A DNA stretch of 55,640 bases, counting the filler, from Diploschistes diacapsis (Eukaryota), in NCBI GenBank assembly GCA_023645945.1. It is 4 parts of 4 records of this genome, joined end to end, with 100 filler letters (N's around TTAATTAATTAA, not from the genome) between each part and the next. Parts side by side here need not be neighbours in the genome. Positions count along the whole stretch, not along the records: positions 27,901 to 41,733 come from JALAIB010000631.1; positions 41,834 to 55,640 come from JALAIB010000633.1; 2 more parts are not named here. The stretch is one strand, 5' to 3'. Below are positions 37,203 to 55,640 of the stretch, one piece after another (position 1 is the stretch's first letter; every line of letters starts with the position of its first letter). The notes beneath the pieces are model-generated. The model was not told the DNA's origin, made no database searches, and worked only from the letters and a program-made list of their open reading frames with translations. The position numbers and the translations under genes are program-made.

Positions 37203-37919
37203 CGTAGAGTTGGGGGACTTGCGCCCCTGGGGGGGGACTAGAGGGGAGATTCTACCGTGCACTCATTCTCTAGTGAAGGTGATTCAAGAAATAAGGTATA
37301 TCGAGTAATTCCAGAATAGGGCAGAAGAATTCGGTGGATTTGAAGGCACTAATAAGACTACATCCCGATTGCTTGCTAATTCAAATTGTCATCCATTTCG
37401 GCTCAATCTCAGACCCTCAATTTACCGATGGGTCATGCGTTAGGGCGCATGAACGTTATTGCGTCCATCATCTCAGCTCTGACGATTCCACAGCACATAA
37501 ACTAGAGATTCTTTGAATATTTAATGTCATTTTTCAGTCAATGTTTCTATAGGCTTGCATGCTTTTTGTACAATTAGGCTAAGCAAACGAATCTCGAAGC
37601 CGCTACGAGCAGCAGCGAACTTCGATTCCCCTGTCACTCACGATTGCAAGCACTGACGAATCTATGCATCCCAAGCATCATCCTTCTACTTCAGCATGGG
37701 CGGTGAGGCAGAGGGGCTAAGGCTGGCTGGCCTGACTCGGGGGCCTTGAATGAGGAGCGGGAAGATGATGCCCTGACAGAGATGGGAGAGGAGGATATAA
37801 AGCCCACCTTCTGCTCCAAAGTCGACGACGAGATCGTTCTCGTTCAATTCAGAGCCTTCTACTCTTCGTCTGCCCGCTCGTCCCCATCATTACCTTGCTC
37901 TATCCCTTCCAAGAACCCA

Positions 37920-39140
37920 ATGGCAAAACAGAAGCGCGATTTCAAGCACGTCTCGGCCAAGGATGCCCAACACATTATTTAGTCCAAGCCGGACGACGGC
38001 CGCAGCCAACCCAAGAAGATAGCACCAGAGACCAAGAAGGCTCGATCCCGAGCTATAGCAGCGTGGATGGAGTAAGTCTGATCTTTTGCGAAACGATCGT
38101 GGCATTTTACTCACTCCATGTAGGTTTGTAGAATCATGTCTTTTTCCTCCAGATACCGTCGCCGCTAGCGACGACGGAGACGACAAGTTGGCCAATTTCT
38201 TGAGTGGCCCGCTGGCCTCGGAGTGGCGAAGCCGTTACGAGAACAAAGTCGACCAGATTTAGATTGACTTATGTCGCAGTAACCCCCTCGCCATTATCTT
38301 CTCACAGGCATTTCTGAAGGCATACGTCCGCTTAAAACCCGTCACTAGTCTCACTCTCGGTCCTGAAGAGGTCATAAAAATACAGGCAGTGAACTCGACG
38401 GATTCTCTCAACACATTCTGGAAAACCCTCATTACCGAAATTAATGACCATATCTTGATACCCCTCAGAAACGCCGACCAGACAACAGCAGTCACTTGCT
38501 CCTAAAGCGTCCGAAGGGATGGTTGGGAGCGCACGATGAAGGTCCTGTTGCTCAAGTCACTCGAGTAAGCTTCCATGCCACGTCTAGATTCTTTCTCGAC
38601 AGCTATCTAATATGCCGTGTAGTGGATATACTGGGACGGAGCTATTGAGATGAACCTCTCGACACAGCCAAAATACAAGAAAGTCTCCTTGACCGTAAAA
38701 GACATCAACCTCCTGCTTGAGACACTATAACTGCGCGCCGACAATATCCCGATTACCGTCATTCCTTCACCGGATTATCTTTCACATAATTGTTCTCTTG
38801 CTCGCCTTTGGTTTTAGACCAGGCATAATCATAAACGCCAAGTATCGTGACTTCGAATTAACAATCGTACGCGATCCGGCAAACCGCACGAGGAAAAGGC
38901 TTGTCCTCCCACTATTCACCGCAACGGGTTAAAGAGAAACGCATTGAAGCACGATCATAATACAGAGCAAGTATCTTTACTACCGTACTACACCGCAAAC
39001 CACCCGTCTCTCAGAGCTAACTCGTAACAGGTTCACCTTCACGATAACTCTTCTACCATATCCGCTCTTTTGCCTTACTCAGCTCATTGCCATGCTCGGA
39101 ATTTATACAAATGCGTTCGAAGCAGAGTATAAGTCGGTAT
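37920..39140 (+). pseudogene. DUF3435 tyrosine recombinase (Starship captain) pseudogene, truncated
   Basis: Spliced translation gives KYKKVSLTVKDINLLLETL*LRA, RIIFHIIVLLLAFGFRPGIIINAKYRDFELTIVRDP and FTFTITLLPYPLFCLTQLIAMLGIYTNAFEAEYKS. In-frame TAG at 37980, TAA at 38728, plus frameshifts. Confidence 0.78.
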
Positions 39141-39635
39141 ATCATTTTTGATTGACTTGTTAGATTTAACACAGTTGGACAGACACCCGCTGCCCAATTT
39201 GCACATGAACTTTGATCACAACCTTGGAGCCCACACATACGCAAATCTGAGACAGCTCAACAGCATCACCGAACCGCATCACGCCGTGGAACTCTAAGTA
39301 CCATAGAAAGCCAGCTTGCCAGAACAAGGATTTCGATCCAATCAAGTCATAAATAGGTGTGACATAGCAGGACCATAGTTATCGGTGACGCCTTGGTCAG
39401 GGGATGCCGTTGCGTGGGTCGATACCGACGTCATGCTAAGTATCGGGCAAGGGCCAGAGGATATGTGCAAGTAACTCCAATCAATTCACACATACCTATC
39501 CAAGTCTGTTCGCATGTACTTTGAGCGCTCAATAACAACCATAAGTTCCCTGCTGACCCAAAGCTTGTAGAGATACCCAGAGTTGACATCCTCCGGCTGC
39601 GTTTCGGTGAGTGGTACAGCGATCCAGCTCCCATT

Positions 39636-40970
39636 CTATGCAGGCATGTTGGACTGGCTGGCCTGCTCGTTGAGTTGCGGAGTCATTGAGTTGCGTAGAC
39701 GTTTAATTGCCTCGGCCAAGCGTTCATGGTTTTTCTTGTGCGAGTCATCCCTGCAGTGCCTGAACGCCGAGACACCTTTACGGTATTGCTCATGGCTCTC
39801 GGTGATGTGGTATGTCTTGACAAGGGTCAAGTGGTACGATGGCTCGGCATCAGGATCAGGTTTGTGGATACGCATGCCATAGTGGGTGAGATCGCCAGGC
39901 ACACTAGTGTAGGTCCAGACGTGTACCACGGTGTTGTCGTCGCATATCGGGTTGTCTACCCCATAGTTCTCGAGAGAAAATGCAGCATAAGCTGCCGCTG
40001 CACCAGCATGAGCTGCCTGGCGCTTCACGACCTCGAGACTCCCGGTGGGACCTTTGATTTCCACGATGAAATGTGGTAAAGCTGGAGCGTTTGGGACAGC
40101 TGAAGGGACGATCAAGTCACCGATGCTGTCCCTGATCACCTTGGGAACCTCTCCAACACTGACTCCATAATACAAATCAGGCTGAGGGGCAACAGTACGG
40201 CCCCCAGTCATCGAGCTCATGTTTTTCCAGGAGACGTTGCCGCTATGTGGAAGACGGCGCCCGCGCAGAGGACCAATTATAGCCGACACAACATCGCGTT
40301 CGATGTCCGGTTCCGTGGCCGCGTGTTTGTTTGCATGCCAGATATCATCGATTTCGCCATCGGAGAATTGGGAAGGTGCTAGCGAGGGCCTCACAGATCT
40401 CTCTAGCCGTAGTTCTTCCCGATCAGCCAGCATGGACGGGTCGCTATCTATGATGATCTTATTATCTTCTAGGATTTGTGGGAAATGATTGCTGGTTGCT
40501 TTGATTCTGTCTGAACTAGTGGTCGTCGTATTACTGTTTTTCGAGCCTGGGGACGTTAGGGAGCGTTTGCTCGGAGGAAGGGAGGTCATCTTTTCAAACT
40601 CCTTCAGATTTTTGCGTGTCAGAGGAGCGACGGTAGCCGGACAATCAGGTTCAACAGTCTTGCAGTCATTGGCCAGATTTCTGTCCTTAAATAGCGATGG
40701 AGGAAATGTGTAGTCCTTGGCCAGATGCCCGTCAGAAAGAGATTGAGGAGACGAAGGAGATGTGTAGTCCATGGGCAAGTTTCTGTCCTCAGACAGGGGT
40801 GGAGGAGACAAAAGAGAGGGAGGAAATGGAGAGTATGTCTGGTCTTCGTTGTGTTGCTGATGGTCGGTCTTTCTCTTCTTGAACAAAGAGTTGTCTTGTG
40901 CTGAGTCTGGAGAAGCACGGTCGCCTTCGAGTGACCTCTTTCGATGCTGGCTTCGTAGTATTGGCGCCAT
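39636..40970 (-). CDS. Intact 444-aa protein with a C-terminal PD-(D/E)xK-like domain (DUF7924-type fungal accessory family)
   Basis: PQPDLYYG...LPHFIVEIKGPTGSLEVVKRQAAHAGA...FRHCRD; low-complexity N-terminus with a basic NLS-like KKRK. Confidence 0.7.
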   Translation of the reverse strand: MAPILRSQHRKRSLEGDRASPDSAQDNSLFKKRKTDHQQHNEDQTYSPFPPSLLSPPPLSEDRNLPMDYTSPSSPQSLSDGHLAKDYTFPPSLFKDRNLANDCKTVEPDCPATVAPLTRKNLKEFEKMTSLPPSKRSLTSPGSKNSNTTTTSSDRIKATSNHFPQILEDNKIIIDSDPSMLADREELRLERSVRPSLAPSQFSDGEIDDIWHANKHAATEPDIERDVVSAIIGPLRGRRLPHSGNVSWKNMSSMTGGRTVAPQPDLYYGVSVGEVPKVIRDSIGDLIVPSAVPNAPALPHFIVEIKGPTGSLEVVKRQAAHAGAAAAYAAFSLENYGVDNPICDDNTVVHVWTYTSVPGDLTHYGMRIHKPDPDAEPSYHLTLVKTYHITESHEQYRKGVSAFRHCRDDSHKKNHERLAEAIKRLRNSMTPQLNEQASQSNMPA

Positions 40971-54805: not shown

Positions 54806-55080
54806 TGTAACGCCCGCAGTGTGCGCACCGGGGTTCAGGTCCCCCTGCTGCCGCAGCTGCGCACCTACATATAGTGTAATAGGGAAACAGTGCTTCGAGG
54901 TTTCTAAAAGGATAACTATAACAACGGAAGTAGTGCTTAATACATAACGCTATTCTACTAAGCCAAAAGATTAATCATAATGCTCTCATTCCTTAGGTCG
55001 TTGTTCGAGCACGAGGCTGGGTATCGCGTGTATCGAATTTATTACGCTCCGAATCGGACGGCCCTGCGTGGGTCGTTATA
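54806..55080 (+). mobile_element. Probable solo LTR (Ty3/gypsy-like), partly RIP-mutated
   Basis: Starts TGTAACGCCCGCAG and ends CTGCGTGGGTCGTTATA (inverted termini, CA changed to TA); flanks AATAA / TATAA match at 4 of 5 positions. Confidence 0.6.
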
Positions 55081-55223
55081 TATAAATAATCCATAATCGT
55101 CTCACATACGGCTAACGAATCTACGTCTCTGAATCTATAACGTAAATATTAAAAACGGTTTAGAATATTCAACATACCCGAGGCGCTATATGAAACGTAA
55201 TAGGTGCTAAAGGTCATTATTAT

Positions 55224-55640
55224 GGGGAAAGAAGATAGTTATAACACCCTAATATACGCACCGGGGTTCAGGTCCTCCTACTACATCACGAAAAGTTTTT
55301 CAAGCAAAAAAAAATTTCTGGCGAAACTGGCGAAACTGGCGAAACCTGGCGAAAGCAGCGAGGCCAATCATTTTTATTACGTAGTCAAAAAATAAAAAAG
55401 AATTTTTTTAATATAATAAAAAAAATTTCGAAAAATTTATTAAAAAATCCGCTAATTTAGCGCCGGATAACTAGCGATAAAAACTCGCTAAAGCTCTCAC
55501 GGCGCGAATATCCACGCTTACGTAATATAAAATACGCCATTCTTAATATTTTCGCGACAATATATAGTACCTGGTAGCCCCGTTAAATCCGATACCACTG
55601 GTATTAATTAACTTAAATATTATTAATACTTAATTAACTT
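55224..55640 (+). mobile_element. Polypurine tract plus the RIP-mutated start of a second LTR copy (55240), then AT-rich repeat debris with CTGGCGAAA x4
   Basis: GGGGAAAGAAGATAGT precedes TATAACACCCTAATATACGCACCGGGGTTCAGGTCCTCCTACTAC, which aligns to 54806 mainly by G-to-A changes. Confidence 0.55.

Follow-up and report, generated by a model that had tools for sequence, protein, structure and literature searches.

A probable Starship-type recombinase relic and a DUF3723 pseudogene on separate contigs of the lichen fungus Diploschistes diacapsis

Does a 55,640-nt stretch of DNA from the lichen fungus Diploschistes diacapsis (hereafter the window, meaning the whole stretch that was analysed) end in a giant transposon? 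A first-pass annotation had proposed that positions 37500-55640 hold a single Starship of at least 18 kb, inactivated by repeat-induced point mutation (RIP), with a DUF3435 captain as its first gene and DUF3723, FRE, kinase and transposable-element debris behind it. Passages of two papers on Starships describe what such an element should look like: a DUF3435 captain placed first and transcribed inward, tens to hundreds of kilobases of cargo, short direct and inverted repeats at the ends and an empty site in relatives (PMC11162782; PMC13486527), with DUF3723, FRE, PLP and NLR genes named there as frequent auxiliary genes (PMC11162782; PMC13486527). Our analysis favours a different answer, to which we give a probability of about 0.75: the region is chimeric and unites two unlinked contigs from a metagenome-assembled genome (MAG), each carrying decayed mobile-element genes. 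One of these relics, the 5´ stump of a DUF3435-type tyrosine-recombinase gene, is the main subject of what follows.

The make-up of the window carries the first part of this answer. Composition and N scans identified three identical 100-nt linkers of the form N44-TTAATTAATTAA-N44, at 13867-13966, 27801-27900 and 41734-41833, which divide the window into pieces of 13,866, 13,834, 13,833 and 13,807 bp. The open reading frames (ORFs) of pieces 1, 2, 3 and 4 match NCBI proteins of four separate contigs of one lichen-fungus MAG (D. diacapsis), with the same four lengths in the same order; the DUF7924 protein of piece 3, for instance, is recorded on a contig of exactly 13,833 bp. The independent Logan assembly also separates the parts, with an 8,186-bp contig that corresponds to 32968-41153 and a 13,011-bp contig that holds four ORFs of piece 4. 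The piece ends are of low complexity (CTC runs, a C run, (TA)n), like the places where short-read contigs break. The proposed element would therefore comprise the last 4.1 kb of piece 3 and the whole of piece 4 (contigs 3 and 4 hereafter), so that the captain and the DUF3723 gene lie on different contigs. Adjacency in the window is likewise uninformative about adjacency in the genome, since the order of the pieces appears to follow descending size. We found no repeat or overlap common to contigs 3 and 4, no repeat of contig 4 elsewhere in the window, and no other copy in the window of the high-copy tail of contig 3. The proposed single Starship is thus cut by the third linker, and its size, cargo and architecture are unsupported because they were put together from relics joined across artificial sequence. 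More generally, any feature of the window that crosses one of the three linkers is artificial.

What, then, is the gene that had been taken for the captain? The housekeeping genes of contig 3 do end at about 37.3 kb, as had been annotated, with a gene for an M28 peptidase on the minus strand (Table 1). The next gene begins at ATG 37920 on the plus strand, points away from the last core gene, and contains the motifs GFRPG..KYRDFELTIVRDP and ITLLPYPLFC that had suggested a DUF3435 protein; it is readable only across stops, frameshifts and introns. Within the interval 37920-39140 the Pfam DUF3435 profile matches at 38699-38929 (E 5.6e-5, profile positions 24-70 of 418), with a score below the gathering score (22.7 versus 25.8 bits). 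A phmmer search of 1.84 billion representative proteins with the read-through of 38750-39148 returned 59 proteins at the cut-off of E<=1e-3, 10 of them at E<=1e-10. DUF3435 was present in 14 of the 15 homologues that were scanned with Pfam, 13 of which exceed the gathering score, and the full-length proteins among those scanned have 588-1,043 aa with DUF3435 at about residues 200-530, two of them with a C-terminal chromodomain. A word-indexed protein search with the read-through of 38146-38763, which covered longer proteins only, had given 900 candidates and none at E<=0.001 before phmmer succeeded.

Only the 5´ part of this gene is present. When the 59 homologues were compared with the whole window by tblastn, they matched only 38125-39148 on the plus strand, through homologue residues ~16-338; all alignments that reach the gene end finish at 39136-39148, and the catalytic two-thirds of the recombinase have no counterpart anywhere in the window. 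Relative to relatives of 800-1040 aa, the pseudogene retains residues ~1-338. Three premature stops, three frameshifts and three probable introns can be placed by alignment (Table 1), and each of the three nonsense changes is a C-to-T or G-to-A transition within a CpA/TpG context. The proposed captain is accordingly a genuine recombinase relic, of which about the first third survives and the catalytic part is gone. Its closest named relative is a 292-aa model labelled by its source as Clarireedia jacksonii, a Leotiomycete turf pathogen, with two cluster mates; 245 of 297 aligned residues are identical (82% in a piecewise ungapped alignment). Proteins with the Clarireedia label are KAM3078838.1, KAM3078837.1 and KAM3068796.1.

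Further evidence came from comparing contig 3 with the assembled contigs of four sequencing runs: a lichen metagenome that contains 0.96 of the sampled words and is probably the source of the window (X1), a rock metagenome (X2), organism A (X3) and organism B (X4, depth ~6). The lichen metagenome covers 32968-41153 with 0 mismatches, including 39132-39139. In organism B, besides a few short pieces, only 37615-41065 is matched, at 94.4-97.6% identity; apart from such pieces, 27901-37614 was not found there. The organism B sequence is unlike the window for 382 nt to the left of 37615 and for 1,299 nt to the right of 41065, and 0.98 of the matched sequence continues into unlike sequence. A second discontinuity lies inside the block, at 39132-39139, where the similarity to recombinase proteins ends and where contigs of organism B (overhangs of 529 and 1,539 nt) and organism A (628 nt, at 39132) depart from the window; depth in the rock metagenome is only 3-5 over the block and is uninformative on the breakpoint at 39135. 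The simplest reading is that the lineage of the window lost 1.5 kb or more by deletion, and with it the rest of the recombinase gene; we infer deletion rather than insertion. If the two organism B overhangs do not overlap, the deletion would be at least 2.07 kb, the size needed for the missing ~460-700 codons. Because organism B has the block with unlike flanks and at least 1.5 kb of extra sequence at the breakpoint, we consider the block to be of mobile origin.

The left edge of the block, at ~37615, lies ~410 bp upstream of the start of the M28 peptidase gene, and the recombinase ATG is found 305 bp inside this edge, with no gene between, so that the recombinase is transcribed inward. This junction is crossed both by a contig of the rock metagenome (37353-37797) and by a contig of organism A (36622-37715), and in the flanks both runs differ from the window by about 1-2%. 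The insertion is therefore common to these close relatives.

Two further observations concern the same stretch. Organism A differs from the window at 75 of 727 positions in 38314-39040 (~10%, as against 1-2% both for the flanks and for the DUF7924 gene described below), which may reflect rapid decay of the pseudogene, RIP confined to one lineage, or a paralogue matched in place of the true copy. Separately, the lichen metagenome contains a 23,971-bp contig at equal depth with a second DUF3435-type gene (around 17,134), which matches 37.7-39.0 kb patchily, in exon-like patches of >=85% identity; the same metagenome thus has a paralogue of the DUF3435-type gene at another place.

Taken together, these results suggest the following history. 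The block of contig 3 from ~37615 would be the stump of a DUF3435 (Starship-type) tyrosine-recombinase element, a type of origin that we infer for the stump as a whole. Its recombinase is dead: besides three stops and three frameshifts it has a break at 39139, where a deletion presumably cost it the whole catalytic two-thirds. An intact DUF7924 gene follows the stump convergently, after which contig 3 breaks in a very high-copy repeat. The element family would once have been mobile, because related copies sit in other contexts, as in organism B, and because a gene model labelled as a Leotiomycete is ~82% identical; at some time in the past the family probably also moved by horizontal transfer. 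The stump itself can no longer move, and it is fixed where it lies in those close relatives that were sampled. The DUF3723 pseudogene, the kinase remnant and the transporter tail belong to contig 4, which is separate.

Contig 4 is gene-poor and has a GC content of 0.44 (versus 0.54). Six-frame Pfam scans of 41834-55640 (ORFs >=45 aa plus frames read through with stops given as X, the minus-strand frames of 48436-49038 being covered by the ORF scan only) matched nothing but Pkinase, DUF3723 and PHM7_ext. The DUF3723 pseudogene had been recognized correctly: its colinear pieces lie in three frames and are interrupted twice by in-frame stops (profile positions 112 to 121), which makes it a true pseudogene, and a K/E/R-rich, coiled-coil-like tail follows the domain at 50124-51066. 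The annotated kinase is likewise present as a fragment (Pkinase at 47936-48421 on the minus strand, E 4.8e-10). A glycine loop is visible in 48376-48771 and HRD/DFG-like motifs in 47933-48421, and the kinase could be an intact gene split by an intron rather than a pseudogene. The PHM7_ext match corresponds to the C-terminal end of a transporter of CSC1/PHM7 type; the same scans found no transporter domain upstream of it, and it is a gene fragment that was either captured or broken. The scans returned no ferric-reductase, patatin, NLR/NACHT-type, reverse-transcriptase, integrase or transposase domain on contig 4, so the FRE remnant and the transposable-element debris of the first-pass annotation did not materialize. 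The left 6 kb of the contig are without recognizable domain, and NCBI annotates at least one hypothetical gene there. Contig 4 may or may not belong to any Starship.

Was either relic inactivated by RIP? RIP-affected sequence is characterized by TpA/ApT >=0.89 together with (CpA+TpG)/(ApC+GpT) <=1.03. The two indices are 0.79 and 1.10 for the DUF3435 block, 0.80 and 1.32 for the DUF3723 region, and 0.88 and 1.19 for contig 4 overall, all outside these bounds; only 41154-41733 and 52993-55640 fall within them. The evidence for RIP is thus weak, and RIP inactivation as previously claimed is not borne out by the classic indices. Relative to organism B, the window has A/T in place of G/C at 79 sites and the reverse at 13, a bias that makes mild RIP-like decay of the stump possible.

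Several observations weigh against our interpretation, in whole or in part, and the RIP indices are among them. Contigs 3 and 4 could still adjoin in the genome, and both end in repeats. The Pfam match of the stump lies under the gathering score, and horizontal transfer is probable rather than demonstrated. An empty site had been expected in related genomes; neither of the two close relatives (rock metagenome and organism A) showed one, and no joint that skips the block was seen. Direct and terminal inverted repeats had been expected as well, and none was above chance at 37615 or 41065: close to the edges, the strongest inverted match joins 37607-37621 to 41196-41210 (15 nt, 80%), and it belongs to a set of 93 pairs at chance level. 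At 41065, the right edge could mark a rearrangement within a larger element and not an element end. Finally, DUF3435 and DUF7924 do not form a general unit, because none of eight metagenome loci with relatives of the DUF7924 gene (30-49% identity, 2.2-13.9 kb) had a DUF3435 neighbour when compared with the 59 recombinase homologues.

How do other explanations fare against the same evidence? That one contiguous, RIP-inactivated Starship of at least 18 kb runs from ~37.5 kb to the end of the window, with a DUF3435 captain and with DUF3723, the kinase and the rest as accessory genes or cargo, is in our view distinctly unlikely. It would account for a captain-like gene that comes first inside the left edge and reads inward, for a DUF3723 gene, which sections of both Starship papers give as a typical auxiliary gene (PMC13486527; PMC11162782), and for the low gene density and lower GC of contig 4; pieces of one repeat-rich element would, moreover, both end in repeats as these contigs do. 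Against this stand the artificial linker between the parts, their separation in two assemblies, the lack of any repeat or overlap common to the two contigs, and the descending sizes of the four pieces, which deprive the window order of meaning. The similarity to organism B also stops at 41065, short of the end of contig 3, the Pfam scans yielded no domain of FRE, PLP or NLR type, and the RIP indices are not those of RIP-affected DNA. A somewhat better, still unlikely, explanation is that a small tyrosine-recombinase transposon, of ~5.5-6 kb when intact and either Crypton-like or a solo Starship-type recombinase with one passenger ORF, left the block as its remnant. The 3.45-kb block of organism B plus the 1.5-2.1 kb or more at the breakpoint, flanked on either side by unlike sequence, has just the size of a recombinase gene and a DUF7924 gene, and according to a passage in the Starfish paper many predicted Starship recombinases are without an annotated element and many are perhaps pseudogenes (PMC11162782). 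This size argument is weakened if the right edge in organism B is a mere rearrangement, and neither the absence of DUF3435 neighbours at all eight DUF7924 loci nor the lack of terminal repeats fits a small two-gene unit. The relatives of the stump, with 800-1040 aa and DUF3435 at ~200-530, also resemble Starship recombinases, for which a median of 812 aa is stated in the same paper (PMC11162782). The stump may derive from a giant Starship or from a small recombinase element.

It is extremely unlikely that the stump is an ordinary host gene, inherited vertically and decaying without any mobile history. Such a gene would be found at the same junction in both close relatives, as this one is, but it would hardly sit between different flanks in organism B or have a paralogue at equal depth elsewhere in the same metagenome, and 82% protein identity to a Leotiomycete-labelled model is hard to reconcile with the vertical descent of a pseudogene. 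A more ambitious version of our own interpretation is also conceivable, namely that a Starship-type element was passed horizontally, and fairly recently, between lichen mycobionts and ascomycetes unrelated to them and left the block as its 5´ stump, that contig 4 belongs to the same element, and that the DUF7924 gene is a passenger kept by selection. We regard this combination as tentative and rather doubtful, and prefer the chimera of two unlinked contigs.

Table 1. Positions in the window of the features discussed in the text
Feature	Position	Strand	Basis or remark
Artificial linker N44-TTAATTAATTAA-N44	41734-41833		Parts contig 3 (27901-41733) from contig 4 (41834-55640)
Block of mobile origin	37615-41065		Present in organism B (X4) between unlike flanks
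DUF3435-type tyrosine-recombinase pseudogene, 5´ part only	37920-39139	+	Pfam, phmmer, tblastn, alignments
Premature stop, Q to TAG	37980	+	Alignments
Premature stop, W to TAG	~38260	+	Alignments
Premature stop, W to TAA	~38728	+	Alignments
Frameshifts	~38476, ~38760, ~38905	+	Alignments
Probable introns	~38073-38151, ~38569-38622, ~38969-39030	+	Pseudogene alignments
Probable deletion breakpoint	39132-39139		Protein similarity ends; contigs of organisms B (X4) and A (X3) depart here
Intact 444-aa ORF with DUF7924 domain	39636-40970	-	Pfam E 2.3e-7; convergent with recombinase stump
Very high-copy AT-rich short-repeat tail	41154-41733		Depth, composition
PA / Peptidase_M28 / TFR_dimer peptidase, last housekeeping gene of contig 3	34401-37262	-	M28 E 5.3e-22, TFR_dimer E 6.8e-23
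Per1 ORF	30174-30848	+	Contig 3
Protein-kinase remnant or split gene	47933-48771	-	Two ORFs, different frames
DUF3723 pseudogene	50124-52992	-	Domain at 51452-52992 (best E 3.2e-36), split over three frames
Isolated PHM7_ext fragment (C-terminal tail, CSC1/PHM7-type transporter)	53563-53880	-	Pfam

The DUF7924 gene of the block is intact and may be cargo. For its protein, 22 relatives were found at E<=1e-3, the majority in lichen fungi and Sordariales. One labelled Lambiella insularis shares 91% identity with it over 431 aa, and is a model that extends, in another frame, into the non-coding DNA of the window downstream of the ORF. The ORF is C-terminally shorter than most relatives (444 versus 500-618 aa), and its conserved PQPDLYYG and E-x-K-G motifs are nuclease-like by impression only. 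An AlphaFold2 model built with 18 sequences reached a mean predicted local distance difference test score (pLDDT) of 49.8, with 70-83 only for residues ~310-435, and a Foldseek search of the PDB with this weak model gave nothing at E<=0.001 (best E 0.24); a putative restriction-endonuclease-domain protein ranked fourth, with a probability of 0.23. A study of the Neurospora crassa pangenome, which ranks gene families by Fano factor, lists DUF7924 among those whose copy number is most over-dispersed from strain to strain (PMC13412767).

Beyond the DUF7924 gene, contig 3 runs into an AT-rich tail of short repeats, and the very high copy number of this repeat from ~41154 explains the assembly break. 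Summed contig depth in the lichen metagenome climbs across 41154-41733 from ~85 through 2,373 to 26,212. In three runs the depth of the tail is hundreds to >1000x the single-copy level, and many loose ends lie at 41355, 41528 and 41591. The tail has a GC content of 0.40, a TpA/ApT of 1.41 and a (CpA+TpG)/(ApC+GpT) of 0.76; its short repeats are modular, with a 67-nt direct repeat at 41442/41524, and it may be a very abundant satellite repeat or one resembling miniature inverted-repeat transposable elements.

On the other side of the block, the M28 peptidase gene is preceded on contig 3 by genes for an Rsc7 subunit, Per1 and phosphoacetylglucosamine mutase. Among the proteins that cluster with the Per1 ORF at 90% identity are some from ENA contigs of 62,108 and 17,558 bp, and a longer assembly of this neighbourhood may exist. 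A search of contig 3 for RNA genes, such as a 5S rDNA target, gave no Rfam match at E<=0.1.

How close does the locus come to known systems? Like a Starship, it has a DUF3435-type gene first inside the boundary and transcribed inward, its genome contains a DUF3723 gene, its host is a lichen fungus, and its close resemblance to copies in unrelated fungi recalls the signals of horizontal transfer reported for captains. Unlike a Starship, it has a truncated recombinase pseudogene without catalytic domain, and only ~3.5 kb of element-like DNA are contiguous, the contig ending 3.8 kb past the captain ATG. The relatives show no empty site, DUF3723 lies only on the other contig, FRE, PLP and NLR genes were not found, and neither direct nor inverted repeats exceed chance at the block edges. 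CryptonF, which a tree in the Starfish paper uses as the outgroup of Starship recombinases (PMC11162782), offers a second comparison: the small size fits the ~5.5-kb minimum derived for organism B, the enzyme is a tyrosine recombinase, and terminal repeats are not obvious, whereas the relatives of the fragment match Pfam DUF3435 and have Starship-like lengths. Judged by its sequence, the locus is best described as a probable decayed relic of a Starship-type element, of a kind already published for lichen fungi.

The literature on such relics also bears on the suggestion that the element might be uncatalogued in this lineage: lichen-forming Lecanoromycetes have since been surveyed for Starship recombinases, as stated in parts of the survey (PMC13486527). 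Those parts report 1,508 recombinases in 554 genomes, a new family named Tangerine, and degraded copies (PMC13486527), the last of which are described for Xanthoria calcicola (PMC13486527); three captain clades are said there to carry signals of horizontal transfer (PMC13486527), and the authors remark that short-read assemblies permit annotation of the captain and not of the element (PMC13486527). The captain phylogeny of the survey comprises 1,222 reference and 494 lichen-associated representatives (PMC13486527). The genus Diploschistes is not named in the main text of that survey (PMC13486527), and another paper, in the portion that names both the genus and 'Starship', states that Starships were not investigated there (PMC13535494); it reports a long-read genome of Diploschistes muscorum with an N50 of 1.5 Mb (PMC13535494). 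Truncated genes such as the present one are in keeping with statements in the Starfish paper, the authors of which expect many predicted recombinases to be pseudogenes (PMC11162782) and, in a passage on their reference set, drop sequences that miss more than one of six active sites as possible pseudogenes (PMC11162782).

In general, windows of joined MAG contigs can mimic large composite elements, and linkers need to be checked before an architecture is read from them. For the fungus itself, our data add one decayed locus of a Starship-type recombinase, which alone opens no new question. The hint of sharing across lineages, in the form of a 3.45-kb block in organism B and a Leotiomycete-labelled gene model, fits the published picture for lichen-associated fungi.

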